Shown here: positions 306 to 34,000 of the stretch, one piece after another
Position numbering within the stretch: position 1 is the first letter of the stretch
How the letters are laid out: each line of letters opens with the position of its first letter
IMG/VR virus record: IMGVR_UViG_3300045988_159790
Length of the DNA: 64,000 bases
Reading direction: 5' to 3' (one strand)
Origin: a virus
The notes under the pieces: model-generated
What the model saw: the letters and a program-made list of their open reading frames with translations, nothing else
Databases searched by the model: none
Told to the model about the DNA's origin: nothing
Translations under genes and position numbers: made by a program

Positions 306-334
306 TTGACAAAATATCAAAAGTATGGTATAAT
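306..334 (+). promoter_or_regulatory. consensus sigma70-type promoter TTGACA-17-TATAAT (cassette copy 1, convergent to flanking genes)
   Basis: Exact hexamers and 17-bp spacer read from sequence. Confidence 0.7.
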
Positions 335-342
335 GGTAAATA

Positions 343-369
343 CCGGCGAAGCCGGACGCCTTCCAGGCG
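343..369 (+). ncRNA. promoter-proximal twin hairpins A (CCGGC-GAA-GCCGG) and B (CGCCT-TCC-AGGCG), copy 1
   Basis: Begins ~9 nt after -10; stems co-vary between copies. Confidence 0.35.
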
Positions 370-2132: not shown

Positions 2133-2161
2133 TTGACAAATTACCGAAAGTATGCTACAAT
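2133..2161 (+). promoter_or_regulatory. promoter TTGACA-17-TACAAT (cassette copy 2)
   Basis: Read from sequence. Confidence 0.65.
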
Positions 2162-2169
2162 GCAAAATT

Positions 2170-2196
2170 CCGGCAAAGCCGGTCGCGCAGAGCGCG
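2170..2196 (+). ncRNA. twin hairpins A (CCGGC-AAA-GCCGG) and B (CGCGC-AGA-GCGCG), copy 2
   Basis: Same position relative to promoter; compensatory stem changes. Confidence 0.35.
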
Positions 2197-2205
2197 GTGA
2201 AAATG

Positions 2206-3323: not shown

Positions 3324-3350
3324 TTCTATTCTATGTTTTTGTCAAGGATA

Positions 3351-3377
3351 CTTGTTTTCAATCTTATTTGTTATCTG
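3351..3377 (-). promoter_or_regulatory. conserved leader motif copy 3
   Basis: cttgttttcaatcttatttgttatctg. Confidence 0.5.
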
Positions 3378-3395
3378 TTCCCTTGAACAATTATA

Positions 3396-3467: not shown

Positions 3468-3496
3468 TTGACAAAAATGCCAAAATGTGATATAAT
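3468..3496 (+). promoter_or_regulatory. promoter TTGACA-17-TATAAT (cassette copy 3)
   Basis: Read from sequence. Confidence 0.7.
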
Positions 3497-3505
3497 ATCA
3501 AAATA

Positions 3506-3541
3506 CCGGCGAAGCCGGACGCCCACAGGGCGGTCTTTTTT
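3506..3541 (+). ncRNA. twin hairpins A and B (CGCCC-ACA-GGGCG) followed by T-run GTCTTTTTT; a ~40-nt promoter-to-terminator unit, copy 3
   Basis: Hairpin B plus T7 forms an intrinsic terminator on plus strand. Confidence 0.4.
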
Positions 3542-3586: not shown

Positions 3587-3952
3587 CTACTTTTTCTTTC
3601 TATGCTTTATCAGCGACAGTGAGTATTCATTCTCGCCGATGTTAAAGGTCAACTCTTTCTGCGGATTGGCTATCTGAACATTACTAATCTTGCCATTAAG
3701 TACCATTCCTCCAAGTAGAGTTTTTAAACACCCGATAAAATCAACCTTTTCATCATCGAGTTTTACTTCTCGTGGCTTCCGCGGTTTCTTTTCAGCTTCC
3801 GCACCCTTAACATAGTTTTTTATTCCCTTAGCTTTGATTTCCATTTCCGCCATTTCCATAGCTTCTTCTTTTGTGACTGGTTCTCCGTCTGCTTCACATT
3901 CCTTGAAAATCTTTAAAGCTAACTTCTCTAAGGCTTCTTTTTTACTATCCAT
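3587..3952 (-). CDS. hypothetical protein
   Basis: 121 aa ORF, RBS AGAGGT, rho-independent terminator 3546-3582 immediately downstream. Confidence 0.55.
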   Translation of the reverse strand: MDSKKEALEKLALKIFKECEADGEPVTKEEAMEMAEMEIKAKGIKNYVKGAEAEKKPRKPREVKLDDEKVDFIGCLKTLLGGMVLNGKISNVQIANPQKELTFNIGENEYSLSLIKHRKKK

Positions 3953-3999: not shown

Positions 4000-4008
4000 G
4001 TCCGCAGA

Positions 4009-4386
4009 TTAGACAAGTGAGAAGATTGCCTTGTCCTTTTCCTCTTCTCTCTTTGCTGTGCCATTGGCAACCATAATCTTGAGAAGTGCAACTACTTTCT
4101 GATTAGAAAGCGCCTGAACCGCTTCATCAGCAGGGAAGTCTTTCATAGCCTTGAGCATAATCTGAGTAGAAGTACCCTTGAAACCGTCAAGGACAACCTT
4201 GAGCTTCTCAACCAGTGCTTCATTAGCCTTAGCTTTCTTATCAGAACCAGCCTTAGCCTTAGCTTTCTTCTTCTCAAGGAGTTCCTTTTCGTGCATAAGA
4301 TAAGTCTTATACATCTCATTGTCCTGTACGAACTCTTCTCCAAGCATAGCCTCGATAACCTGTAACTTTGTAATCTTCTTTTCCAT
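4009..4386 (-). CDS. hypothetical protein (K/E-rich, helical)
   Basis: 125 aa ORF, RBS GAGGT; hairpin 3978-3999 downstream. Confidence 0.5.
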   Translation of the reverse strand: MEKKITKLQVIEAMLGEEFVQDNEMYKTYLMHEKELLEKKKAKAKAGSDKKAKANEALVEKLKVVLDGFKGTSTQIMLKAMKDFPADEAVQALSNQKVVALLKIMVANGTAKREEEKDKAIFSLV

Positions 4387-4498
4387 AATGCAATACCTCG
4401 CTTTTATATAATATTTGAAGCTGATTTTTATTTTTTAATGTGGTCGATTGATGGCTCCCTTTCCTTTCCACATATATATGATAGCACATTTTATTGCG

Positions 4499-4789
4499 CT
4501 AGTCAAGCATAAATAATGTCATTCCGGCTATTTCCTTTTCTACCACTTCTAAAGTATCTAAATGAATAGTGGCTCTGACTATCTTCCAACAGCCAGTTTC
4601 AAACTTGTTGTGTTCATGGCGGCGTGGTAGTCTCTCTGCGGCATGGACTGCACTCTGACAATCTTCAAATACACCATCTATAACATAAGCAACTTGCGTT
4701 CCCATGCAATCTAAGTATCTCATTACTTTTAAGACATACTTAGTCTCTGTTTTTCTTGGTACATGCTTAGTCTCTGTTCCCATAACCAT
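4499..4789 (-). CDS. hypothetical protein
   Basis: 96 aa ORF directly downstream of minus-strand TTGACA-17-TATAAT promoter 4810-4838; RBS GGAAG. Confidence 0.5.
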   Translation of the reverse strand: MVMGTETKHVPRKTETKYVLKVMRYLDCMGTQVAYVIDGVFEDCQSAVHAAERLPRRHEHNKFETGCWKIVRATIHLDTLEVVEKEIAGMTLFMLD

Positions 4790-4809
4790 TACTTCCTTTC
4801 TATACCCTT

Positions 4810-4838
4810 ATTATATCACTTAGGTATCTATTTGTCAA
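4810..4838 (-). promoter_or_regulatory. minus-strand promoter TTGACA-17-TATAAT (proximal, cassette 4)
   Basis: Read from rc. Confidence 0.6.
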
Positions 4839-4860
4839 GCACTTCTTTTTTTTTGTTCGG

Positions 4861-4888
4861 GTTGTTTAGCAATCTCATTTGTTATCTC
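4861..4888 (-). promoter_or_regulatory. conserved leader motif copy 4 (more diverged)
   Basis: gttgtttagcaatctcatttgttatctc. Confidence 0.4.
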
Positions 4889-4901
4889 CCTTACAAGTAT
4901 C

Positions 4902-4929
4902 ATTATAGCAGATTGCCCCAAAATTGCAA
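4902..4929 (-). promoter_or_regulatory. minus-strand promoter TTGCAA-16-TATAAT (distal, cassette 4)
   Basis: Read from rc. Confidence 0.5.
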
Positions 4930-4939
4930 TAGTCAAAAC

Positions 4940-4969
4940 TGCACAAGATTTTGGGATAATGTTTGTGCA
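4940..4969. promoter_or_regulatory. operator-like inverted repeat TGCACAAG-N-TTTGTGCA
   Basis: Same architecture in cassette 4. Confidence 0.4.
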
Positions 4970-4988
4970 ATATGTCAACTTTTTTCCC

Positions 4989-5017
4989 TTGACAAAAATC
5001 CTAAAAGGTGGTATAAT
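4989..5017 (+). promoter_or_regulatory. promoter TTGACA-17-TATAAT (cassette copy 4)
   Basis: Read from sequence. Confidence 0.7.
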
Positions 5018-5026
5018 AGGCAAATT

Positions 5027-5050
5027 CCGGCGGGGCCGGACGTGCTCCGC
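5027..5050 (+). ncRNA. hairpin A (CCGGC-GGG-GCCGG) and degenerate hairpin B, copy 4
   Basis: Same spacing from -10. Confidence 0.3.
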
Positions 5051-5059
5051 CCGGTGCGA

Positions 5060-5200
5060 TTATTCTAACTTAAATTAGTTTGAACTAACAAGTGTTTTAT
5101 AAGTCTAACTTAAGTTAGCTTAATCTAACTACAGTTAGTTTGAATTAACAAGGATTAGCTTAATCTAACTAGAGTTAGTTTGAATTAACAACTGTTAAAA
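5060..5200. repeat. tandem ~40-bp iterons (2 near-identical plus 2 degenerate) each carrying palindrome CTAACT-N2-3-AGTTAG followed by TTTGAATTAACAA
   Basis: agcttaatctaactacagttagtttgaattaacaagg at 5117 and 5157; degenerate copies at 5060 and 5098. Confidence 0.7.
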
Positions 5201-5299
5201 ATTGCTAACTTTACTTTTATAAAACGAACTTCAATTCGTCTTCTCTAACTTTAATTTTATACAGCTAATTACAGATATTTGTAGCTAATTAAAATTAGA

Positions 5300-5335
5300 G
5301 AACGCAAATCGAATTTTGGAGGGTTGCCGCTACTT
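5300..5335 (-). terminator. hairpin GGGTTGCC-N7-GGCAACCC overlapping stop of 5330..5614 (weak T-run)
   Basis: 8-bp stem. Confidence 0.35.
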
Positions 5336-5614
5336 GGCAACCCAAACCTTTAATATTATGTCGTCATATTTAGACGACTGGTCATTAATGTCAAATAACA
5401 TCTTGACATTTTGACCCTCCGCGATATCACAGCCATCATATTCCCAGATATCGCCTGCCCTATCAGCAATCCGCACAAATCCATTATCATTGCTGATTAC
5501 CTTACCCTCTCTTGTACAGTGACCCTCAAGGTATATCGCGCCTAAGAATAATATTCCTAAAACTAAACCCAGGGCTATTCTTTTAACTATTGCTTTACTA
5601 TTGTTTTTTCTCAT
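5330..5614 (-). CDS. hypothetical secreted/membrane-anchored protein
   Basis: 94 aa ORF, N-terminal basic stretch plus hydrophobic helix (signal/anchor-like), RBS GAGGT. Confidence 0.5.
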   Translation of the reverse strand: MRKNNSKAIVKRIALGLVLGILFLGAIYLEGHCTREGKVISNDNGFVRIADRAGDIWEYDGCDIAEGQNVKMLFDINDQSSKYDDIILKVWVAK

Positions 5615-5675
5615 TTTAAATACCTCATTTCATTTTTATTTTTATATGTGGGCTTGGCTTCCCAAGCCCTAATCA

Positions 5676-5984
5676 TTAACAATATATCAAACTCATGTCT
5701 GCCCACTTGAGAATAGATATCTGTGCGCATTGTCTACCAAGTGCCAAAGCGTCTCTTTTTGTAGACACTCTGTGGCTCTTGTCTACAAAATAAACGCCAT
5801 TCTCAAGCCAAAGTCCGCAATTACCACCGTATGCTCTAACGGCTTTAATTGCTTCCTCGGGAGTTGTAACCATTACTCCCTCGGTGGCTACTTGATAACC
5901 ACTCTTGTATGTGATTATCTTACCATTCTTGAGTGTTAAACCGCCACACTCCTCAATCTTTCTTATTGTCCTAATGTTTATCAT
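5676..5984 (-). CDS. hypothetical protein
   Basis: 102 aa ORF with RBS GTGAGGT. Confidence 0.5.
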   Translation of the reverse strand: MINIRTIRKIEECGGLTLKNGKIITYKSGYQVATEGVMVTTPEEAIKAVRAYGGNCGLWLENGVYFVDKSHRVSTKRDALALGRQCAQISILKWADMSLIYC

Positions 5985-6026
5985 ACTTATAATACCTCAC
6001 TTTCTTTTCTCTTGGATAGTCCCGGC

Positions 6027-6356
6027 TTAGTAGCCGAGACTTATTAACTTGTCTATGTAAGAGTTCAGAACTGCTACAAACTGCTTGTTTGTCATCTTTC
6101 TAAACCTCTCAAGTGTAAAGTCGATAGGCGGAAGTTCTACACCCTCAACCTTTATGATGTACACCTGCGGACACGCTTTAATTGCATTGACTGCATGGAA
6201 GATGTTCACATCTTCGTATATATAAGTTGTGTCCTCATAGTTTGCAAATCTCATTGAGAACTTCTCTTTTGTATACATATTTAATTTCTTCATAGTAACC
6301 TCTTTTCTGTCTCTCTCTTGAAAGACTATCAATTTTATTTTACGGTTTTCGTTCAC
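6027..6356 (-). CDS. hypothetical protein
   Basis: 109 aa ORF with RBS AGAGGT. Confidence 0.5.
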   Translation of the reverse strand: MNENRKIKLIVFQERDRKEVTMKKLNMYTKEKFSMRFANYEDTTYIYEDVNIFHAVNAIKACPQVYIIKVEGVELPPIDFTLERFRKMTNKQFVAVLNSYIDKLISLGY

Positions 6357-6583
6357 CGCACCATTATAATATCATACCCCGTTTTCAATGTCAACACTTT
6401 TTTCAAAAATTTTTAAAAATTTTTTTATGCCCTATTTTCAAGGCTTTTCACGCACCCAAACACATGCACCAGACGATGATGTGACTACTTTTTTAGTCAG
6501 CAATAGTGACGATGTGTTTACTTTTGTAGTCAAATAGTCATCAATTATGGGATATGATTAGTCTTGTAGTCACACTCAATGTC

Positions 6584-6652
6584 GATTTGAAAAGTTTAAA
6601 TAACTAGTCAAATAGGCAAAATGCGACACGCTTTATGGGAGGAAGCGTGCCG
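6584..6652 (+). repeat. conserved ~70-bp element with hairpin whose loop is UAUGGGAGG (copy A)
   Basis: gatttgaaaagtttaaataactagtcaaataggcaaaatgcgacacgctttatgggaggaagcgtgccg; stem cacgctt/aagcgtg. Confidence 0.5.
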
Positions 6653-6660
6653 TTCAAAAT

Positions 6661-6780
6661 AACTAACCAAAGTTAGTCAAGCCTAACAATAGTTAGACTA
6701 AACTAATTAGATTTCGGGAAGACTAACTAGAGTTAGTTTGAATTAACAAGCATTAAGCTTGACTAACTCAAGTTAGTCTT
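6661..6780. repeat. second cluster of four CTAAC(T)-N-(A)GTTAG palindromes including one full iteron copy (gactaactagagttagtttgaattaacaag)
   Basis: actaac-caaa-gttagt, ctaac-aata-gttag, gactaact-ag-agttag, gactaact-ca-agttagtc. Confidence 0.65.
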
Positions 6781-6790
6781 TCCTAAACTA

Positions 6791-6823
6791 GATGAGTGCG
6801 GATTAGCGGTTTCCGCACTCATC
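6791..6823. repeat. perfect inverted repeat with 11-12 bp arms (GATGAGTGCGG ... CCGCACTCATC)
   Basis: Read from sequence; no adjacent T-run on either strand. Confidence 0.6.
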
Positions 6824-6979
6824 TAATAGACTAGACATGAAGCCGATGATGAACTCCATAAGACTAAGAAGTTCGTCATCAGATATGACTATGTGCGTAA
6901 GCACAAAGTCAACTTTCTGATTGACTTCTGTGACAGTGGAGCATTGCTCCACCATCACTATAGCTTCTAAAAAACTCAT
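6803..6979 (-). CDS. small hypothetical protein (58 aa, MSFLEAIVMVEQCSTVTEV...), not in ORF track
   Basis: Strong RBS GGGGAGGTGG; ATG overlaps the TGA of upstream gene 6976..7461 in ATGA arrangement (translational coupling); stop codon lies in loop of perfect 12-bp-arm palindrome 6791-6823. Confidence 0.45.
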   Translation of the reverse strand: MSFLEAIVMVEQCSTVTEVNQKVDFVLTHIVISDDELLSLMEFIIGFMSSLLDECGNR

Positions 6980-7461
6980 TCTACCACCTCCCCAGTTTTT
7001 TCATTTACTAAGCTACATCTAAGACCTAGTATTTTGCAAGCTTTAGCTGTATTATAGAATACTGATAATGCTGTGCCATAACTTTCAATCCCTGTAAAGA
7101 TTGGAGTGTTGCCATTATAAACTCCGTAGGTTACTTCCTGGAGTTCAAACTCCGCGATTGCGGAGTTTACTTGATTCTGCATTTCCTTAAGTAATGCTCC
7201 ACCGAAAAGCTCCTGAAGCTGATTGCCTTGAGTGAGACAGTCAAGTTCCATCTCTAACTTTGCCCAACACTCTGCTGAATCCTCATAAATAAACCCCTTG
7301 AGGATTATCTTGCAATCTACAGCATTAACTACACTGTGGATTGTATTGATTATCATAAGAGCATTATCTGCTACTGTATCAACACAGAGCCAGTTGCCCT
7401 CTTTAACTTCTTTACCTATTATTGACCTCATTGTTGCAATCAGCTTGTTTCCTTTTATCAT
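6976..7461 (-). CDS. hypothetical protein (ORF track start 7491 is TTG; ATG at 7461 with GGAAAGAGGT RBS preferred)
   Basis: ORF, RBS-supported internal ATG (MIKGNKL...). Confidence 0.5.
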   Translation of the reverse strand: MIKGNKLIATMRSIIGKEVKEGNWLCVDTVADNALMIINTIHSVVNAVDCKIILKGFIYEDSAECWAKLEMELDCLTQGNQLQELFGGALLKEMQNQVNSAIAEFELQEVTYGVYNGNTPIFTGIESYGTALSVFYNTAKACKILGLRCSLVNEKTGEVVE

Positions 7462-7573
7462 AATATACCTCTTTCCGCCCTTGCTTCTCAAGGGCTATCT
7501 AATTTATTTTGCCGCCATTGCCTTGCGACACCATTATAGTACACCCACCGCGCACTCATTGCAATATGCAAAA

Positions 7574-7603
7574 TGCACAAAGTTTGACAGATGTTTTTGT
7601 GCA
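7574..7603. promoter_or_regulatory. operator-like inverted repeat TGCACAAAG-N-TTTGTGCA (third copy, outside a full cassette)
   Basis: Preceded by same ATTGCAATA context as copies 1 and 4. Confidence 0.4.
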
Positions 7604-7741
7604 ATTTGTACAAAAGAGAATGCACCAAGATGGAAGTACCGAACATTTGTTCACCGCTTTAGTCAGCTCCGAGAATAGTTTAGTTTTTTAGACGCATGAG
7701 TTGTGGGAATTTTTATTTGACTACTTGATTAGACTTTTAGA

Positions 7742-7810
7742 ATTTGAAATGTTTAAATGACTAGAAATATAGTAAAATGCGGAGCGCTTTATGGGAGGAA
7801 GCGCGCCGAT
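7742..7810 (+). repeat. conserved ~70-bp element copy B with compensatory stem change (gcgctt/aagcgc)
   Basis: aatttgaaatgtttaaatgactagaaatatagtaaaatgcggagcgctttatgggaggaagcgcgccg. Confidence 0.5.
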
Positions 7811-7987
7811 GATTTGAAAATGTACGGGACTACAGTCTCAGTGTATGCTGATTATTTTTTGATAAAACTACAGACCATACATAAAAGGTGGTCATCAGTT
7901 TAAAATAAAAAAATTTTCTCTTTTTACCCGGGGATATATTATGGGAAAATGAAAAATTAATTCGATGAAATCATATTTAGCTGGTAC

Positions 7988-8050
7988 ATTCACACACCCC
8001 AAATTTTTTGAAATTTAAAAAACGATTCACACACCAAAAATTTTTTCGTT
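7988..8050. repeat. direct repeat ATTCACACACC(C/A)AAAATTTTTT x2 (37-bp period)
   Basis: Read from sequence. Confidence 0.5.
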
Positions 8051-8065
8051 TTTTAAAATACGAGA

Positions 8066-8371
8066 TTAATTCCGAACAACTCTTCCATGTTTCCCTGTTT
8101 GCTTATATGCCATAAACAGATTATTTAATTTAGTATTATTTCCATCCCCTAAGTTAATTAATAGGAAATCACAATTTTTTATAATATCTGAAGTTTCCGC
8201 ATTTTTTATATAGCGGGTCGGCGCGCCAACCGAATCAGCCCATTTTGCGGCAATGCTATCTTTATTTGTTACTAGCATATAAAATAAATAGCATTGACTT
8301 TCCGCAATTAACTTCTGCATTTCCGCATCAATATCTTCAATTTTATTAAAACCAATCGCCGCGACTATCAT
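8066..8371 (-). CDS. hypothetical protein, first gene of leftward arm at the divergent promoter region
   Basis: 101 aa ORF, RBS AAAGGAGTG, minus-strand TTGAAA-17-TATAAT promoter 8394-8422. Confidence 0.5.
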   Translation of the reverse strand: MIVAAIGFNKIEDIDAEMQKLIAESQCYLFYMLVTNKDSIAAKWADSVGAPTRYIKNAETSDIIKNCDFLLINLGDGNNTKLNNLFMAYKQTGKHGRVVRN

Positions 8372-8393
8372 TTTTATTCACTCCTTTATAATA

Positions 8394-8422
8394 ATTATAT
8401 CAAAAATTTTTTTTCTTTTCAA
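8394..8422 (-). promoter_or_regulatory. minus-strand promoter TTGAAA-17-TATAAT for 8066..8371
   Basis: Read from rc; divergent from plus promoter 8440-8468. Confidence 0.55.
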
Positions 8423-8439
8423 ATTATCTACTTTTGTCC

Positions 8440-8468
8440 TTGACTTGTGAAAATTTTTTTGGTATAAT
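8440..8468 (+). promoter_or_regulatory. promoter TTGACT-17-TATAAT for rightward late/structural operon
   Basis: Read from sequence. Confidence 0.65.
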
Positions 8469-8499
8469 TATTATAAGAATAAGAAATAAGGAGAGACTA

Positions 8500-9582
8500 A
8501 TGGAGCAACAAAAAGAAAATAGTGATTATATTAAAATGGATTTTAATATTGAATCACCTGCGGAAAGAGTAGAGAAAGTAAAAGAAATTATTGCCAACAC
8601 TCCTCCTGAAAGATTAACTCATTCTTACTTAGAGAAATTAAGTAATTACATAATTTTTGCTATGGATAAAGAAGAAAGAAAACAAAACAAAATCTTAACA
8701 GATAACCATATGCAAACAGTAAATGTAAGAGAGACATCTTTTGAAGGACTTGTAGGTAGATTAGAAAATGGTGAAGATGGTATATATAATATGATTGCGA
8801 ATGACAAAAATATTATATTTAAACCAAAATTTGAAATTACAGACGCGGATATCGCGGAAATGCCTGAGCTAAGAGAACTCCGCAAGGGCATAGAAGAATT
8901 AAAAGAACAGTTAAAAACAGCAAGAGGCAAAAAAGCATATCAAATAAAAAAACATATCATAGAAGCAAGTCAAGACCAGTATGTAATAAAAAATTCTTAT
9001 AAAAAACCTATCTATTGTATAAATCCCCTTAAAAGTGTAGCAAAATTAGATTTAGATGAACATGTAACTGTTGATGAAAATGATGAAATTCATACTGATG
9101 GTATTTTAAGTTTACTCGTGCCGCGACATATTTGCGCGGTATTATGTAATTATGAAAAATTAAGAATTCAAACTTGGGATAAGTTAAATAGTGATGTTAA
9201 ATGGTTTCTTGTAGACTTAGATAATCTTATAGATGAAACTTTAAAATATGATTATCCAATATATTATGATATCACTCTCTTGAAAATTCGCGGCTACCAG
9301 AATACAGAAATTCAAGAGTATTTAGAAATAAAATATAATGTAAATCACTCTGTTGAATATATTTCTTCTCTTTGGAGAAATAAAATACCAAAATTACTTG
9401 CGGAAAAGGCACAAGAGAAATGGTTAGTTTGGTATTATACTAACAAAGCAGAAGGAAAATGGAAAAAATGTTCAAGATGTGGGCAAATTAAGTTAGCTAG
9501 TAATAGATTCTTTTCAAAAAATAATACAAGCAAAGACCATTTTTACAGTATATGTAAATGTTGCAGAAATAAAAGAAAATAA
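8500..9582 (+). CDS. hypothetical protein with C-terminal Cys4 zinc ribbon; first gene of rightward late operon
   Basis: ATG 8500 with AAGGAGA RBS (ORF track start 8434 lies inside promoter); CSRCGQ...CKCCRNK. Confidence 0.6.
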   Translation: MEQQKENSDYIKMDFNIESPAERVEKVKEIIANTPPERLTHSYLEKLSNYIIFAMDKEERKQNKILTDNHMQTVNVRETSFEGLVGRLENGEDGIYNMIANDKNIIFKPKFEITDADIAEMPELRELRKGIEELKEQLKTARGKKAYQIKKHIIEASQDQYVIKNSYKKPIYCINPLKSVAKLDLDEHVTVDENDEIHTDGILSLLVPRHICAVLCNYEKLRIQTWDKLNSDVKWFLVDLDNLIDETLKYDYPIYYDITLLKIRGYQNTEIQEYLEIKYNVNHSVEYISSLWRNKIPKLLAEKAQEKWLVWYYTNKAEGKWKKCSRCGQIKLASNRFFSKNNTSKDHFYSICKCCRNKRK

Positions 9583-25020: not shown

Positions 25021-28000
25021 ATGGCAGGAAGAAAAAGAATTGATATTGATATAGGGTTCAATACCGATACCTCAAGAGCAAAAGCTCAAATTCAAGATTT
25101 ACAAAAACAGATAGTTAATTTATCGGTTGCCGCAAAGCAGAATACAGCAACTAATACCTTATCTTCTGATATTTCCAAAGCTGTAATAGAAGCTAGTAAA
25201 TTAAATGGTATATTATCACAATCAATGACTTTTAAGGGAGATAACCTTGATTTATCTAAATTTGTTACAAACTTAAATAAGTCTGGTACTACTATTTCTC
25301 AAGTTCGTAAGAATTTAGAATCATTAGGTCCTCAAGGTCAAAAAGCATTTACATCTTTAGCGCAATCTATTATGTCTGCGGAAGTTCCTTTAAGACAGTC
25401 TGAAGGACTTTTAAAGAGTTTTTCTACTACTCTTACAAATAGTGCGAAATGGACTGTAGCTTCAGGTGCCGTTCATCAAGTACAAACAGAATTTAGTAAA
25501 GCTTTTGAATATAGTAGAAAGCTTGATAAATCATTAAATGAAATTAGAATAGTATCTGGAGAAAGTTCAGATAATATGGCTAAATTTGCTAAACAAGCAA
25601 ATGAATCTGCCAAAGCTTTAAATACAACAACAACTGCATATACAAATGCGGCATTAATCTTCTATCAGCAAGGTCTGGATACTGCCGCAGTTAAGGAACG
25701 TACTGATGCAGTTACAAAGATGGCAAGTGTTACAGGAGAGACTGCGGCGGATGTTTCTTCTTATATGACAGCTATTTGGAATAACTTTAATGATGGTTCA
25801 AAAAGCGTAGAATACTTTGCAGATGTTCTTACTGCATTAGGTGCGGCAACTGCATCTAGTACAGATGAAATCGCAGCAGGTCTTGAGAAGTTTGCTTCTA
25901 TTGGTAATACTGTAGGTTTATCATACGAATATGCTACTTCTGCTCTTGCAACTGTTGTTGCAGAAACTCGTCAGTCCGCAGATACTGTAGGTACTGCATT
26001 TAAGACATTATTCGCACGTATCCAGGACTTAGAGTTAGGTAATACTTTAGATGATGGAACAACATTAGGTCAGTATTCTAAGGCTCTTGAATCTATTGGT
26101 GTTAATATTAAAGATTCAAAAGGCGAAGTTCGTGATATGGATGATATCTTAGACGATATGGGTTCTAAATGGAAAACCATTTCTAAGGATACACAGATTG
26201 CAGTTGCGCAAGCAGTTGCAGGTACTCGTCAGTATAGCCAATTAATTGCCTTAATGGATAAATGGGATGTCTTCCAAGAGAACTTAAATATAGCTAAGGG
26301 TGCAGAAGGTTCTTTACAACAGCAAGCTGATATTTATGCAGAATCATGGGATGCCGCATCTAAGAAAATAAAAACTTCATTAGAAGAAATTTATTCAAAT
26401 CTTATTGATAGTAAAACTATGGTTGATTTAATGAAATTCCTTAGTAAAGCTATTGAAGGATTTGGTCATTTTGTTGATTCTGTTGGTGGAGTTAGAACTG
26501 CTTTTATTTTATTAGCAAATACTATAATTTCTAATCAAGGTCCTCAAATAAGCAAATATGTTGATAAAGTTGTTGATAACTTTAAAATTAAATTTGGTAT
26601 TATGGGCAAAGAAATTGAGGCAACCCGAGAGAAGGCTCAAAAAGAATATAAAGCTATGATTGCGGGAATGGATATAAGAACGCCAGAAGACCGTGCGCAA
26701 GTAGCTAATATGAAAGCAAATTATGATATTGAAAATGCTATTTTTGAGAAGAAAAAAGAGTTAGCTAAAATAAATGCAAATTTAACTGAATCTCAAATAG
26801 AACAAATAGCTAATGAAAAAGCTCAATTAAAACAATTAACAGAAGAAGCTGAAGTTACAGCTCAGATTTATGATACTAAAAATAAAGCTAGACACGCTGC
26901 ATCTGACGATATTTCATCTATTGGTCAGAGATTTAAAAGCACTAATTTATCTTTAGACAACGTAGACAGTAAAAAAATTCGTGAAAAAATTACTTCAGAA
27001 GTAAACAAAGCTTATTATGCAAAAAATTTACCTGAAAATACTTTACAAGAGCTTTATGCAAAGAAAGTATTATTAGGTGAAGCAGATGAATTACCTAGTG
27101 AATATTATCTTAGTCAAAACTATAAAGGTATAGAAAAAACCAGAGCAAGAAATAGCCGCTATTGGGATATGATACATCAAGTTGACCCTGCAGATGAGAA
27201 TGGTAATTATAGATTCTCAGAAAAAGAACGAAGACCAACAAATAGTGCGAATATTAATAAAACAGTATATAAATCATACCTTGAAAAATATAGAGATACT
27301 AAAAAGTTAGCTGAAGGCATGGTTAATCCTAATTTTGATGAAGAAGCACAGGAAGCTCTTCAGAATCAATTTTTTGAAGACTATAATGCTGCAGAATTAG
27401 CATATGCTGGAAATGAAACTAATATTTCTACTAGTAATAAAGTTTTAAATTTATTTGATATGAATAAAGTTAAATCAGGTAAATTTTCTTTAAAAGATAT
27501 GCAAGAAACATTATCTACTCTTTATAATTCTTCAAATGAAAATAAGCGAATGATTGATGACCTTATGAAATTAAATGAATATAAAAAAGAAGGTAATATT
27601 AAAAAGCTTATTACTGGTCAGAATGTAGCAGGTGCAGATAAAACAGACTATGCTCATATGCTACAGATGATTGAAAACAATAGAACGAGTTATCTTACAA
27701 ATCGAGATACTCTTAGTGGCAATCTCAGAGGTGTTTTACAAAATTACGGTTTTGAAGCTACAGATGTTACAAAGATATCTGACGCACTTGATGAACAACA
27801 TAAAGCGATAAAGGCTTCAGATAAGTCTTTAGCAGATTATGTAAAATCTTTATTAGATGTTCAAAATCATTCTAAATCAGTAGTTGATTCTATTAATGAG
27901 ATGGGATTTTCTGTAGGTAGTATTGGCGAGAATTTTGCTAATGGCGCGAGTGCTATGAGTAGTTTTGCGATGACTGCTAATAGTGCTTATTCTGTTTTTG

Positions 28001-31000
28001 AATCTATAGAAGAATTATTTTCTGGAGATTTAAAATTAAGTATTGGTTCTATAATTGGACTTTTTACTCAATTGGGCTTTAGTGTGTCTGGTTTTCTTCA
28101 AACAAAGAAATCATTTAATCAATTTTCAAACATGCTTTCGGGAACTATTGGTAATAGAGCTACTTTAAAAGACCAAAAAGCATTAGAAGACAGAAAATAC
28201 AATTTAGCAGAAACAAAAGATAGTATTGATGCTTCATTTAAAGAATATCTTGAAAAGAAAAGTGTATTTGGAAAAGATAAAGGTAAACAAAAGAAATTAT
28301 CAGATTTTGCAAGTTTGATAGGTGAAAGTCAAACAATAGACTTGCCAGATAATTTATCTAAAATGAGTGCTGATGAAAGAAAAGATTGGCTTTCTAAAGT
28401 AAGTGGAGCAAAAATTGATTCGCAATATAGAACTAGAGATTCTAGACTTACAGGAATTACAAAGGGTCTTATTACAAATGATAATGAATGGGCAAACTTT
28501 ACTGAAAGTTTAAAGCAGAGAAAAGCTGCCGCACAAGAAGAGCAAGATATTGTAGCAACAACTCAAGCGGTTGAAGGTCGTGGAATTCAAATCGCAAGTA
28601 AAGTTTCAAAGGCAATGGGCGCAATTGGTATTGCTGTTCAGGTTGCAACAGCAGCGTATGCCGCGTATAACCTTATTCATAAAGCGGTTGTAGCTAATTT
28701 ACAAAAAGAGGCAGAAGAAAGTCTTAGAGTAGCACAAAATACAACAGAAAGAACAAAGCAGTATAAAGAAGAATCAGATAAAGTTAGTGAATTAAAGAAA
28801 GCTTATGATGAATTATATAATAAGTATAATGATGGAGAATTATCAGCTTCCGCATTAAAGAAACAAAGCTATGACCTTTGTATGCAATATGGTGAAGAAG
28901 AGCTTGCAGTAAAAGCATTAAGTGGAGAATATAAGAGTCTCGAAGAAGCTATGAAGTCTATTGAGAGTAAAAAAACAGAGAAAACACTTAATTCTGCAAA
29001 GCAAGAACAGAAAAACTATGAAATAGCTCTTAAAGACCAATTAAGTGCAAGTGCAGAAGAAGATTCAGGTAGAAGAGATTTTGTTAATGGAACTGAGACT
29101 ATTGACTTAAAAGGTATGGTTGCAAGAAATTCTAAAGAAAAGAATTTAGCTAGTCAACTTCAAGAATTAGGAGTTCAATTCCTTACAAATGATAAAATTA
29201 GTCTCCAAAGTTTAGCTACTGCAATTAAGACAGATGCGGATGCAGTTCAATCTGTATTAAATGATTCTGATACTTCTGCAGCAAAACAATTAAGACAGTA
29301 TTTATCAAGTGCAAAAGACCAAATTGATGGTTTAACAGAATCTATAGATACTGCGCATGAAGCCCAAAAGACTATGATTGTAGATGCCCAAAACTTTGAT
29401 GCGATTAATTCTATTGAAGACTATACTACAACATGGAGAAATATGGTCCATGAAGCGTTAAGTAAAGGTGTTTATGATTCTATTGAGGATGCTTCAAAAT
29501 GGGCAAATTCGTATATGTCTGCTATTGATAGTATAAAAGAATATGCTCAAACTGCAACAGTTGCTGACACTATTATGTCTAATACTTCTACAGATGTATT
29601 TAAAGATATTCAAAAACAGAAAGATGAAATTGATAAGAAGACTACTGAAGATTATCTTAATGCTGTTGGGGATAATGCTAAATATATCTATCAAGATAAA
29701 GGTTTATTTGGTACGGGTCTTTTTGCAAAAGGTGAAATAACTGAAGAAGAATACAATAGCCATAATAAGTCTTATAATCAAGTTGGCGCAGGCGGTAATT
29801 ATATATATACTAAAGAAGTTGACCAAAATGCTGTTCAAGAATGGAAAGATAGTCAAAAAATAGCTTCTGAATTAAATAGTTTACAATATTATGAATCTAT
29901 GACGAAAGCTTTAGATAACTATTCTACTTATGAACAAAGTTTCTTTAGTGATAATTTTTCTCAGTTGCTTAGTGAAGCAATGGAGAAGAATAGTAATAAT
30001 ACAGAAAAAGCTTTATCTTCATTGGCAGAAAAGCTTCCTAATGTATTTAAAGGAAGTGCAGAAAAAGGCGAAGCTGATTATGCACAAACTTTAGTTGATG
30101 GTTTAATTACTGATAAAACAGAACTAACAGATAAGCAAAAGAAACAAATTCTTGATACTCTTGATTTTTCCGGTGTTACATCTGAAGGTGTATCAGTTGA
30201 TGAAAAAACTTTAAATAATATGGATTGGTCATCTCAAGCTACTCTTATGGCATCTTTCTATGGCGAGAAATTAAAGTTAATTGAAGAGACTGGTGATGCG
30301 GCAAGAGAAGAAGCTCAATTAGAAGCTGATACATATAAAGAAAAATATAAAGAGCAAATAGATGACTATAAAGAAGCTCAAAAAGAATTAGAATTATTAT
30401 CAGAAGATTCAGATGCTAATTTCACTCAAGATGATATTGGTAAATTAGTTGATAAGTTTAATGGCAATGATTTAAGTGGTCTTAATAGTGACACTATTAG
30501 AGATTTAAAAGATGCTATGAAAAATCAAGGCTATGGCAGTGATGATAGTGATGTTGTAAATTTCTTTAAAAAGCTTAGTAATAAAAAATATTCAGACCAG
30601 TTAGAGAAACTTGATGATTTAGTTAAAGACCTTACCGTTGATTCAGAAGATTGGAACAAGGTTGTTAAAGCTGGCGAAAAAGCGCAAGAAGCTAATAGTA
30701 GTGTTATTGATGAAATTCAAACTGGGTATAAGACTCTAACATCTGCTATGAAGGATTATAATGCTAATGGTTACTTTACTATGGATAATCTTCAAGCTAT
30801 CCTTGAACTTGAACCTAAATATCTTTCAGCATTAGAGTGGGATGGAAGTCAGTTTAAGTTAAATACTGCTGACTTAAAAGAGATGACTAAGGCTAAACTT
30901 GCGGATATGGCAGTAAGTCAAGCAAGAATTACTGTAGCTAAAGTTGAATCTATTTTATCAAGCGATAATGTAGTTAATGCAGCTATGGAATTAGAGATGA

Positions 31001-34000
31001 CTCAAAAGTTGACTACATCGACAATGAGTTATGCAGAGACTTTAATTGCAGAAGCTAGAGGTTTAGCTGCTGCAAACACAGAGCTTCAGAACAATGCTGC
31101 AGCAATGCAACAAGTTACAATGTATATTGATGCGCAGGAAAATGCGATTGCCGCGATAGGCAATGTTTATGATAATATTGATGCGCATTTTGATAAGATT
31201 ATGGGTAGTAGTTCTGCTGCTTCATCTTCAAAGAAGAAATACTTTGAAGATGAGTTCGATAGATATTGGGAATTTAAGAAGGCTATTGATGAAGTTGCTC
31301 ATGCAATGGAGCGCCTTGAAGATGAACAAGATAATCTGTACGGACAAGAATTAATTGATAATCTTAATCAAGTAAATGATTTATTAGTAACTCAAAAAGC
31401 TAATTATGAAGCTTTATATGAAGCACAAAAGGTTGAAGCAGAAGAATTAAGAAGCTCATTAAGTGCTTATGGTGCATTATTTGATGAGGAAGGTCGTCTT
31501 ACAAACTATGCAGATATTACGACATCTATGTTTGCACAGTATGGTAATGTTGATGATTCAGAAACATATGAAGAATTTAAGAAATATCTTGAAAGATATG
31601 ATACTCTTTATTATTCTGAAATGGTCGATACTACAGATAAGATTGTAGAAGAATCTAAGAAGATACTTGAAAATAATCTTAAGATTTGGGAAACAGATAT
31701 CCAAATTAACTTAGATTTAAAACAAGCTGAAAGAGACTGGAATGATTTCTTAAAAGAGATTAACAGAAACTTTAAATCAACATTTAGTGATGCAGGACAA
31801 GAGATTGAATATGCTTTAAAGAAAGCTCAAACATTTAACTTAAATGATGGAACTCTTGCAAGTGATATTCAGAAAGTTGAGAATATCAACTATGAAATAG
31901 ACCAATTGAAGAATGGCGGAACAAGTGATTTATTTAGTTCTTTATCAGAAGCAGAAAATGCTTTAAAAGAAGCTAACAAGACACTTCAAGATGATGCTGA
32001 GGAGCTATTCTCAACATATGAAGAAGGTTGGAACGCTTATTTAGAATATATTGATGATGTAGGAACGCATCTTGATAATATTAATAAGAAATATGAAGAA
32101 TTAAATGAAGAGCTTGAACATCAAGCTAATTTAATTAGTCTTTTATATGGAGATACAGCTTATGATAAACTTGCTAAGTTATATGATACTCAACAGAAAA
32201 ATAATTTAGCTCAATTAAAATCTTTAAGACAACAGACAGATTTTTATCAGGCACAATATGAGAAAGCTGTTCAATTAGATGGTGAAGATAGTAAATCCGC
32301 AGAAAAATGGCTTGAAAAGAAAAAACAAGCTATGCAAGACCTTCGTTCAGAAGAAGAGACTTACATTAAGACTATTCAAAGTAAATATAATAATACTATT
32401 GATAGTATCATTAAAAAAGCTAGAATGGCTACTAATGGCGGAGTTGACACTGATTGGGCTAGAACCATGTATGATTTAACAAAGACTAAATCAGAAGGTA
32501 ATTATGATGATGTTGAAAGAGTATATCAATTAACTTCATTACAATCTAAATGGAATAAATTAATTGCAGATACTACAGGAACTAAAAATCAAGAAAAGTT
32601 AAAGAAGATTATGGATGAGCAATTAGCTAATCTTGAAAAGAAAGCTACTTTAACAGAGTATGACATTGGTCTCGCGGAAAAAGCACTTGCGGTAGAACAA
32701 GCTAGAATAGCGCTTGAGCAAGCTCAGAATTCAAAAGATAGTATGAAGCTTACTAGAAATGCAGAAGGTAATTGGTCTTATCAATATGTAGCAGATGAAG
32801 ATAATGTTGCGGAAAAGCAACAAGATTTATTAGATGCTATTAATGATAAATATGAATATGTAAAATCTGCAAATCAACAAGCTTTAGATGATTTACTTCA
32901 ATATGAAGAAGATTTCTGGAATAAATACGCGGAGATTATGAAAGATGTTTCCTTATCTGATGAAGAAAGACAAAGTAGAATAGCTCAACTTTATGATATG
33001 TATTATGGAAAAGAAGGTATTCTTACTCAAGCTTATCAAGACTCTGCACAAACACAACAAGATTTAAACCTTGTTACAGCAGAACAATTATGGGCTATTT
33101 ACGAATCAGACCAAGAGAAGTATGCTACTATGACTGCTGCAGAACAAGAGTTAATAGATGGTTTAAAGAACGGAACTATTAAATCTTATGAAGATATTCA
33201 AGAAGCTGGTCAAAGAGTTAATGATGAAAGTCTTGACTATTGGAATACAACTGCACAAGCAATGGCAGATGCATGGAATGCAGATGATGGAATGAGTATT
33301 AAATCTCAGGTTAATGAAGCTTTAAAGGATTGCTCATCTGCATTAGGAGATTATAATGCAGATGTTGATGCAGGATGCGCAGCCGCAGGTGAAGATTTTA
33401 CAGATGTGGGTAGTGCGATAGATGATGTATCTAGTGCTATTGATGATTTAGATGGAACAACTGAAGATTATATTGACAATGCAGAAAAATTAATTGATGA
33501 TTACATAAATAGTTTAAAAGAATTAGAATCTCAATGGAAAGAAGTTAAGGCTATTGTTGAACAAAATATTGAAACTATGAAGAAATATGAGTTAGCAGCA
33601 AAGAGTGCTTCTACTGTCAAAACTCCAGCTGCTGCAGCTCCATCAAGCGGAGGTAGTGTAGGTGGAAATTCTACTGATATTGCAGATAATAACCCTCCGG
33701 AAGAAACAGTTCATTACTATTCAGTAGATAGCGCACCAGATGGTGATGGTTTAGTAGTAACAGTATATGAAAGAACGGGAAATAGTGAAAAAGCGATAGG
33801 ACGAGATGGAGAAGAGCCAAAAGATTACAGAGACCATAGAATTAGTTCTGTTTGGGAAGCTAGAGATTATATAAATCAAGTTTTATCTGATAATGGATAT
33901 GATGAAGAGTTAGACCCTAATGTAAATGTTCAAACAAGCGGTTACAAATATTATTTAGATAATGCAAGAGTAAATACATATTCTTTCGATACTGGCGGAT

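Follow-up and report, generated by a model that had tools for sequence, protein, structure and literature searches.

Phased GTTAG/CTAAC arrays in the early region of a large siphovirus-like phage: a possible binding platform for a host DtxR-type repressor

Two clusters of CTAAC/GTTAG palindromes flank a small gene block in the virus record IMGVR_UViG_3300045988_159790. The locus raises the question of which protein reads these sites and what the clusters do for the phage. The window, by which we mean the whole 64-kb stretch of DNA analysed, belongs to a large, siphovirus-like phage. Among its genes are one resembling a sigma factor and those for the large terminase, portal, NrdD, dUTPase, a RuvC-like resolvase, and a fragment of a DNA polymerase. 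The portal shares 33–38% identity with its counterparts in the Enterococcus phage EF1 group and gut phage Phass-1, and SPbeta-like phages were also matched. A megablast search of positions 4000–9000 against GenBank phages returned no match. A leftward block of small ORFans, dense in perfect sigma-A-type promoters, has the arrays at its start; the point where it diverges from a rightward block of sigma, terminase and structural genes is 1.6–3.4 kb away.

Two palindrome arrays and their surroundings

Seven exact copies of CTAAC-N4-GTTAG were counted on both strands of the 64-kb window, compared with 0.02 expected from dinucleotide-preserving shuffles, and none of 100 shuffles reached seven. The sites are thus far more frequent than AT-rich composition, the trivial explanation to be checked, would produce. 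Four of the copies, starting at 6663, 6683, 6723, and 6763, fall within 6661–6780 (array 2), exactly where the earlier note had placed and described four palindromes. The other three start at 5105, 5125, and 5165 (array 1), with a one-mismatch copy at 5065; outside the two arrays the palindrome is found on neither strand of the window. Positions 5165 and 6723 share an identical 27-mer, CTAACTAGAGTTAGTTTGAATTAACAA, which corresponds to the complete repeat copy that had been reported as shared with the first array.

Exact sites are spaced 20 or 40 bp apart inside each array, and the 20-bp register is filled by degenerate units, with approximately 12 units at 5065–5298 and 6–7 at 6663–6796. Half-sites number 18 per 382 bp in the arrays vs 1.23 per kb in the window outside them, and the AT content of the arrays is 73–78%. 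The lattice is built of 5+4+5+6 bp and has two dyad axes per 20-bp period, so that GTTAG-N6-CTAAC describes it as validly as CTAAC-N4-GTTAG. The N6 form is exact at 5114 and 6672, and a further eight one-mismatch copies in the window are all array-internal; N4 pairs are better kept there than N6 pairs (7 vs 2 exact). The 20-bp unit can be written A-GTTAG-TYwwRA-CTAAC-TnnA. The centres of its half-sites are alternately 11 and 9 bp apart, which would place the half-sites roughly on one face of the DNA, and cooperative binding by a row of dimers could follow. The features around the arrays are as follows.

4009..4386, minus strand: FamB, a winged-helix protein, the nearest recognisable DNA binder
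4989–5017, plus strand: perfect consensus promoter (TTGACA-17-TATAAT with TG), aimed into array 1
5027–5039 (CCGGC-GGG-GCCGG) and 5041–5058, plus strand: two GC hairpins after the promoter at 4989
5065..5298, no strand: array 1, about 12 units, degenerating progressively toward 5298
5321..5343, minus strand: GC-rich hairpin seen by inspection of the sequence, extending over the stop codon of 5330..5614 and adjoining the end of array 1
5330..5614, minus strand: bracketed gene 3, 94 aa, N-terminal segment hydrophobic
5676..5984, minus strand: bracketed gene 2, 102 aa, of a very large and highly conserved phage family (3735 homologues)
6027..6293, minus strand: bracketed gene 1, 88 aa from ATG 6293, ORFan
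6366..6394, minus strand: sigma-A-type promoter of the bracketed three-gene operon (TTGACA-17-TATTAT with TG)
6478..6620, no strand: unrelated repeat family, three copies of the 22-nt direct repeat GATGTGnnTACTTTTGTAGTCA and more TAGTCA copies
6627..6649, minus strand: hairpin with a 7-bp stem on the far side of array 2, with a compensatory A-T to G-C change relative to locus L003 of a close relative
6663..6796, no strand: array 2, 6–7 units, with degenerate units at 6703, 6743, and 6783 between exact ones
6789..6825, minus strand: hairpin with a perfect 14-bp stem, directly after gene 6803..6979, adjoining the upstream edge of array 2

Each array in the window is flanked by hairpins on both sides, and the three minus-strand ORFs between the arrays confirm that a small gene block is bracketed. 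The ORF at 6027..6356 more likely starts at ATG 6293, which is preceded by AAGAGG, and its homologue in L003 is also 88 aa long. The promoter of the operon has an A/T tract (UP-like) upstream of it at 6400–6430. Between this promoter and array 2 are the repeats of 6478..6620, which are kept in L003. No ORF lies behind the plus-strand promoter at 4989, and the arrangement around this promoter is repeated in two other loci (L005 and L016).

Spread of the lattice and anatomy of its sites

The lattice was searched for in IMG/VR, requiring two sites at 20-bp spacing, and was retrieved from 29 stretches on 27 contigs with a GC content of 29–49%. Nearly all of these stretches have further in-register sites, with approximately 21–28 consecutive units in L021 and L016; a composition-matched permuted palindrome gave 0 matches in IMG/VR. 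In a metagenome collection the lattice occurs in at least 120 stretches, most of which, among the matches listed, carry markers of the same phage group. Most lattice carriers are related large SPbeta-like phages, and early-region proteins are common to the window and many array loci. The motif itself is invariant in phages spanning 29–49% GC.

A 150-kb contig (L003 and L005) is a close relative in which both arrays recur at matching positions. Array 2 shares 94.8% identity with its counterpart in L003, compared with 83–89% in the neighbouring non-coding DNA, and an indel the size of exactly one 20-bp unit distinguishes array 1 from its counterpart in L005. Among the array loci, an array usually lies about 35 bp past the terminator of the 5676..5984 homologue. 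A second array is usually found directly upstream of the gene of another protein family, FamA. It thus held up that the two clusters form one family of predicted protein-binding sites, kept in many related phages and at the same positions in the close relative. Array numbers and sizes vary widely: the number in relatives ranges from one up to the approximately 15 of L013, the richest, which has them within 11 kb with one in nearly every early intergenic gap, and individual arrays range from 2 to about 48 half-sites. Arrays are absent within 10 kb in 55 of the 62 IMG/VR loci of the same supergroup fetched via the FamB protein, indicating that they are accessory. Several array-free relatives carry clusters of other palindromes instead.

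The spacing between half-sites is strict. Across the phage loci, GTTAG-Nx-CTAAC occurs 229 times with x = 6, once with x = 7, and never with x = 5, and CTAAC-Nx-GTTAG occurs 209 times with x = 4. Flanking bases extend the half-site to A-GTTAG-T-Y, and the middle two positions of the 4-bp spacer are uninformative. Complementarity at spacer and flank positions is near the level predicted from base preferences (observed/predicted 0.43/0.40, 0.42/0.35, and 0.18/0.26). No compensatory covariation was seen at these positions across the phage loci, and many variants would break a stem. The flank preferences and the complementarity at the predicted level point to protein contacts on duplex DNA, not to RNA or cruciform stems. 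On this evidence the lattice is a set of predicted protein-binding sites in DNA and not of hairpins. Isolated sites in the phage loci are of the N6 form in 11 cases and of the N4 form in one, and runs of two half-sites are likewise N6 in 130 cases vs N4 in 67.

In relation to promoters the arrays follow no fixed pattern. Sites between −80 and +20 of consensus promoters amounted to 0/191 in the phage loci. Of the promoters flanking arrays, 18 are aimed inward and 27 outward, and 41 arrays have no consensus promoter within 150 bp; some arrays are located 15–60 bp downstream of strong promoters. A fixed operator position was looked for and none was found, promoter cores being avoided. The earlier description of the arrays as regulatory therefore stands only in a loose sense, as the sites never overlap promoter cores; looping between arrays 1 and 2 is conceivable, although no result points to it in particular. 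Taken together, the comparisons show a conserved, helically phased lattice, apparently of protein-binding type, in insulated intergenic gaps of the early region.

The same lattice at bacterial feoAB promoters

Genomes of 185,579 species were scanned for the lattice, yielding 22 stretches. Several of these are long arrays on phage-like MAG contigs assigned to Oscillospiraceae, Erysipelotrichaceae, and Eubacterium bins; the genuine chromosomal matches have only two to four phased sites. In two Lachnospiraceae and one Spirochaetales MAG the sites are directly upstream of feoA-feoA-feoB, and the Spirochaetales feo locus has a divergent DtxR-family gene. In Saccharibacteria a double site is located upstream of the gene of a 74-aa HTH_3 (XRE-family) protein, whose own gene it precedes. 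Other chromosomal matches occur at a radical-SAM gene of Succinivibrio and next to lexA. The metagenome scan added at least four feo operons, three with adjoining DtxR-family genes, and at least six XRE-type loci.

Among the matches listed, the feoAB loci with the lattice are L037, L042, L045, L145, L150, L174, and L210. All seven have two or three phased units overlapping the promoter, and a DtxR-family gene is adjacent in five of them. The DtxR identity was assigned by Pfam domains (Fe_dep_repress and Fe_dep_repr_C) for L042 and by homology to L042 for the others; the regulators of L150 and L210, for example, are encoded at 6771–7151 and 307–726 of their loci. In L150, L174, and L210 the operator consists of TTGACA followed by three complete GTTAG-N6-CTAAC units in 20-bp phase, spanning the promoter. 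Three such units at 20-bp phase are likely the operator of DtxR-family feoAB regulators in anaerobes, judging from this gene context. The operator is apparently undescribed: a literature search for a DtxR or feoA motif of lattice form found nothing specific.

The placement of DtxR dimers on the DtxR box belongs to the general background of this comparison. So does the tox gene of corynephage beta, which is controlled by the host DtxR and provides a precedent for a phage element read by a host DtxR. The arrays resemble DtxR/IdeR operators in their GTTAG/CTAAC half-site, and the TTAG-N6-CTAA of the DtxR box is the N6 unit of the arrays. The classical DtxR consensus is TTAGGTTAGCCTAACCTAA (PMC7762939), in which TTAG-N6-CTAA occurs twice with a 5-bp offset. 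The arrays thus contain the inverted TTAG/CTAA half-sites of TTAGGTTAGCCTAACCTAA with their 6-bp spacing, and the same architecture is found at metal-uptake promoters beside a DtxR-family gene. However, a site overlapping the regulated promoter, as a DtxR operator should have, is missing from the phage loci (the 0/191 given above). In the classical box the sites overlap within a single 19-bp element, whereas the phage sites are non-overlapping, recur every 20 bp, and number 6 to about 28 copies. The phage arrays also stand outside promoter cores, and the likeness is one of sequence.

Double operators of controller proteins and other XRE regulators offer a second resemblance, since the Saccharibacteria 74-aa HTH_3 gene has exactly the double site of the lattice. 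That an XRE-family protein has the same double site in another phylum means that the motif by itself does not name its reader. Unlike in such systems, no XRE gene accompanies the phage arrays, and isolated phage sites are of the N6 type.

Candidate readers and roles of the arrays

A phage-encoded binder was searched for in array-bearing phages, represented by partial genomes, and in the window, which is part of a genome and of which some ORFs were scanned. The earlier note had proposed looking for the binder among the genes at 5330..5614, 5676..5984, and 6027..6356, but no recognisable DNA-binding or Rep-like domain is present in them. None of the bracketed genes matches Pfam or PHROG. The model of the 5676..5984 protein (pLDDT 95) has no convincing match to solved structures and no recognisable DNA-binding fold, and the 88-aa protein (6027..6293) has no sequence match in PDB. 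The 94-aa protein of 5330..5614 is probably a membrane or secreted protein, given its hydrophobic N-terminus. FamB is modelled (pLDDT 92) as a long helix with a winged helix. Its structural matches are generic winged-helix proteins, the best being a weak one to AspA, the centromere-binding protein of pNOB8 (E 0.009). FamB was rejected as the binder, as 55 of the 62 FamB loci have the same recognition helix but no arrays, and sub-clustering did not separate out any subfamily specific to array-bearing phages. FamA (about 150 aa), often encoded immediately downstream of an array, has no family match and is read as PD-(D/E)xK-like from its GD..DG..QIK motif. It was likewise rejected, because the window lacks it and array-free phages commonly carry it. 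When array-bearing and array-free loci were compared, none of the ORF families proved enriched in the former. Neither XRE nor DtxR homologues were found in the window, nor XRE homologues in the phage loci, and Pfam and PHROGs revealed no other DNA-binding domain among the window proteins scanned. A profile of four feo-linked regulators found no homologue in IMG/VR except one partial match at a contig end.

From the site anatomy we infer that the ligand is a dimeric HTH protein, one that recognises GTTAG half-sites and either accepts or requires the 20-bp phasing. A host metal-dependent repressor of the DtxR/IdeR family appears the most likely such ligand, and on sequence comparison the host DtxR family would be the sole protein family to which circumstantial evidence positively points. 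This evidence consists of the identical lattice at feoAB promoters of gut and rumen anaerobes, usually beside a DtxR-family gene, and of the TTAG-N6-CTAA geometry that also occurs twice in the classical DtxR box. A ligand of host origin is further supported by the lack of a phage protein family specific to array loci and of a feo-type regulator on the IMG/VR contigs. We therefore tentatively favour, at well short of even confidence, the view that the arrays may be a binding platform for a host DtxR-type repressor. Dimers of the HTH protein would occupy the helically phased, operator-type sites cooperatively and in rows. The platform, flanked by hairpins in the gaps between early operons and kept off promoter cores, would allow high-capacity binding. 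More speculatively, it might tie the early region to the metal status of the host, or soak up repressor as phage DNA multiplies. A promoter-independent platform, whether sensor or sink, is favoured over a classical operator or an origin by the position of the sites off promoter cores, the mixed promoter directions, the twenty-fold range of array sizes, the invariance of the motif in very divergent phages, and the dispensability of arrays in relatives.

Several findings count against a host DtxR-type reader. Few bacteria yielded a feo operator with the exact lattice; the spacer preference is ...A-CTAAC in phages but mostly ...G-CTAAC in feo operators; and the N4 pairs, not the N6 pairs of the DtxR box, are the better preserved in the window. 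The use of the same double site by the XRE-family Saccharibacteria regulator means that several families can read the motif, and the arrays of other palindromes in relatives could mean phage-specific systems. The arrays located 15–60 bp past strong promoters would also fit an ordinary roadblock repressor.

The lattice could instead be read by a phage regulator encoded outside the stretches examined, which would control early transcription through a cooperative filament, a roadblock, or looping. We consider this only slightly less likely than a host repressor. Phages usually encode their own operator-binding proteins, and the arrays occupy a promoter-dense early region, often at −60 to −120 upstream or +20 to +60 downstream of consensus promoters. 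In L013 an array stands 23–51 bp upstream of the −35 element at seven early promoters. In array-bearing phages one array is almost always directly upstream of the FamA gene, and other palindromes in relatives would be expected if protein-site pairs diversify. On the other hand, no protein family tracks the arrays, with FamA and FamB equally present in array-free phages, and the window protein scans described above disclosed neither an XRE or DtxR-type regulator nor another DNA-binding domain. The complete avoidance of promoter cores and the 41 examined arrays remote from any consensus promoter also weigh against such a regulator, and 20–28 tandem units are too many for an operator. The closest described analogue in role is the SPBRE of SPbeta, a 15-bp element present singly at each promoter, dispersed intergenically, and bound by the master regulator MrpR (YopR) (PMC10516654). 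Like the arrays, it is a repeated intergenic element in a large SPbeta-related siphovirus. Its core, AATATGTATA, is common to the upstream regions of six MrpR-bound SPbeta genes. The arrays were nevertheless not identified with SPBRE, since AATATGTATA is unrelated to the array motif in sequence and the architecture differs. No CTAAC-type sites occur in SPbeta at 40–90 kb, and no MrpR-like domain of tyrosine-recombinase fold was found among the window proteins scanned, a subset of the ORFs of a partial genome.

Long rows of phased sites also recall origins, centromeres, and structured transcripts. Tandem, helix-phased units of about 20 bp are known from lambda ori, bound by the O protein, and from P1 incC-repA-incA and F ori2-repE-incC, where two arrays bracket genes. 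The arrays could accordingly be iterons bound by an initiator, with the two arrays bracketing control genes and possibly engaging in handcuffing or looping. The strict 20-bp register with its internal dyad and two-helical-turn phase, seen in both arrays and in relatives, falls within the 17–22 bp or so of tandem iterons and resembles those of lambda and plasmids. The bracketed gene block, the strong promoter that enters array 1 with no ORF behind it, recalling transcription-activated origins, and the somewhat elevated AT content would also fit. The arrays lie 1.6–3.4 kb from the cumulative GC-skew minimum and the strand switch near 8 kb, but gene orientation accounts for the skew switch. No cognate initiator is encoded at or between the repeats, and neither a Rep nor a winged-helix fold was recognised in the bracketed proteins (88, 102, and 94 aa). 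DnaA-box matches form no cluster near the arrays, the closest being at 2995 and 10549, and apart from the 6400–6430 tract there is no discrete AT-rich block for unwinding. Iterons are expected at one or few loci per replicon and in all relatives that share the replication module, whereas array number varies up to the approximately 15 in 11 kb of L013, most close relatives with the same early-gene set have none, and the motif is invariant across very divergent phages with no conserved candidate initiator alongside. The replication-region interpretation in the earlier note is hence disfavoured, and an origin appears unlikely.

Centromere arrays are known in plasmids, as in pSK41 parC, where ParR binds 20-bp repeats, and pB171, where parC1 and parC2 flank the par2 operon. 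A 20-bp tandem repeat could carry a protein superstructure, and the long phased arrays on either side of an operon, together with the weak AspA match of FamB, would suit a partition centromere of a plasmid-prophage lifestyle. Unlike plasmid centromeres, however, the phage arrays are multiple and dispersed, with many in some relatives. FamB is not array-specific, no ParA, ParM, or TubZ-type NTPase occurs beside the arrays or among the window proteins scanned, and the neighbours are small ORFans in which no partition operon and no ribbon-helix-helix adaptor was identified. We judge a centromere very unlikely. A role as RNA, in which transcription of array 1 from the promoter at 4989 would give a chain of short hairpins serving, for example, as a protein sponge, is more improbable still. 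This promoter is aimed into the array with no ORF behind it, and the predicted fold is better than shuffles (z = −4.7), but any palindromic lattice yields such a score. The missing covariation and the many variants that disrupt the would-be stem argue against RNA, as do the prevalence of outward-aimed promoters, the arrays with no promoter nearby, and the lack of a comparable promoter at array 2. No Rfam match was obtained at the gathering score or E<0.05. In arm length and spacer, CTAAC-N4-GTTAG matches the Firmicute LexA (Cheo) box, CGAAC-N4-GTTCG; the array arms CTAAC/GTTAG differ from it at the conserved G, and CGAAC variants are only sporadic.

The lattice family is widespread among large gut and rumen phages. 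The usual interpretation of a tandem site array in a phage is an origin, operator, or centromere on which a phage protein acts, whereas here the exact architecture of a bacterial iron-uptake operator is found and no matching phage regulator was detected. A more specific version of the preferred reading, a platform for a host DtxR-type repressor, treats the arrays as a DNA decoy. Tens of feoAB-operator copies would titrate the host DtxR-family Fe2+ repressor and derepress ferrous-iron uptake during infection, and the extra iron could feed the phage anaerobic ribonucleotide reductase. This is rather unlikely; if true, the arrays would be an auxiliary 'metabolic gene' consisting of non-coding DNA. 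Should the ligand be a host metal repressor, the iron status of the host could govern phage development, as it does the tox gene in corynephage beta, or, alternatively, host iron homeostasis could be manipulated through titration by DNA alone.

Promoter cassettes, repeats and genes in the window

Four perfect consensus promoters were identified on the plus strand, in a part of the window whose genes all lie on the minus strand. A TTTTGGGAAAAT-like motif precedes each of the four promoters, and about 10 nt or less beyond each comes a conserved CCGGC-RRR-GCCGG hairpin, with a second GC hairpin after it. The conserved sequence CAGATAACAAnnGAGATTGAAAACAAG recurs close to several minus-strand early promoters.

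306-369, plus strand, promoter cassette
2133-2200, plus strand, promoter cassette
3468-3532, plus strand, promoter cassette
4989-5058, plus strand, promoter cassette
about 150-195, 2000-2057, 3350-3395 and 4850-4880, minus strand, CAGATAACAAnnGAGATTGAAAACAAG
4009-4386, minus strand, FamB
3587-3952, minus strand, partner family gene adjoining FamB
6478-6620, second repeat family, separating array 2 from the promoter at 6394
8434-9582, plus strand, sigma-factor-like protein (PHROG 5767, E 1e-49)
25021-34353 and 34458-39896, plus strand, giant ORFs of 3110 and 1812 aa in the structural/late block

The four promoter-hairpin sites are one repeated cassette of about 100 bp. Its transcripts would be no longer than about 35-40 nt; alternatively, it would serve as a bidirectional terminator with an outward promoter. 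Only the copy at 4989 is followed by an array. CAGATAACAAnnGAGATTGAAAACAAG probably belongs to a promoter/leader cassette that has been duplicated.

The winged-helix protein FamB is small and rich in lysine. Nearly all related phages carry both FamB and its partner family, each in approximately two to four copies per early region, with 180 FamB and 114 partner family members in about 70 loci. The sigma-factor-like protein has no Pfam match; its C-terminus is rich in cysteine and has a weak match to endonuclease VII (E 1.5e-4).

The second repeat family beside array 2 comprises three copies of the 22-nt direct repeat GATGTGnnTACTTTTGTAGTCA, spaced by 33 and 40, together with more TAGTCA copies and one inverted TGACTA. 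This family is kept in L003, a close relative of the window, and AGTCAAAG-type repeats occur alongside the arrays of phage contig L021 (about 4160-4300).

The motif in bacterial and metagenome contigs

Two or three GTTAG-N6-CTAAC units in 20-bp phase overlap bacterial feoAB promoters at seven loci, mostly with a DtxR-family gene alongside. These units are likely an operator for the neighbouring DtxR-family regulators, and no description of such a phased feoAB operator was found in the searchable literature. Saccharibacteria-type contigs have the same double site immediately upstream of a 74-aa HTH_3 (XRE) gene, which is adjoined by RadC-like and phospholipase-D-like nuclease genes. The site resembles the operator of a controller protein in a mobile or defence module. 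The motif also occurs in high-GC metagenome contigs (GC 0.63-0.64) and a Mariniblastus MAG, two contexts that are each unlike both the phages and the feo loci.

feoAB promoters: L150:7140-7215, L174:4100-4170, L210:760-830, L037:1270-1350, L042:4350-4415, L045:6955-7000, L145:545-605
Double site before the HTH_3 gene: L030:1484-1517, L044:617-650, L048:6332-6365, L051:6495-6528; also L120, L140, L196, L201, L209, L233
Six phased CTAAC-N4-GTTAG sites per run, high-GC contigs: L148:457-570, L203:4665-4780
20-bp tandem repeat carrying CTAAC-N4-GTTAG, Mariniblastus MAG: L046:7400-7500

Other palindrome clusters in array-free relatives

Several phages of the same supergroup that lack CTAAC-type arrays carry clusters of other palindromes (L061:39-508, L067:2966-3090, L059:16268-16510, L094:14871-15250, L074:494-710). 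The palindromes are GTTAA-N4-TTAAC in eight to ten copies, ATAGA-N5-TCTAT at a 16-bp period, GGAAC-N5-GTTCC, ACAAC-N7-GTTGT at 60-90 bp and GACAA-N5-TTGTC at 67 bp, suggesting that site arrays with differing specificity are a general trait of this phage group.
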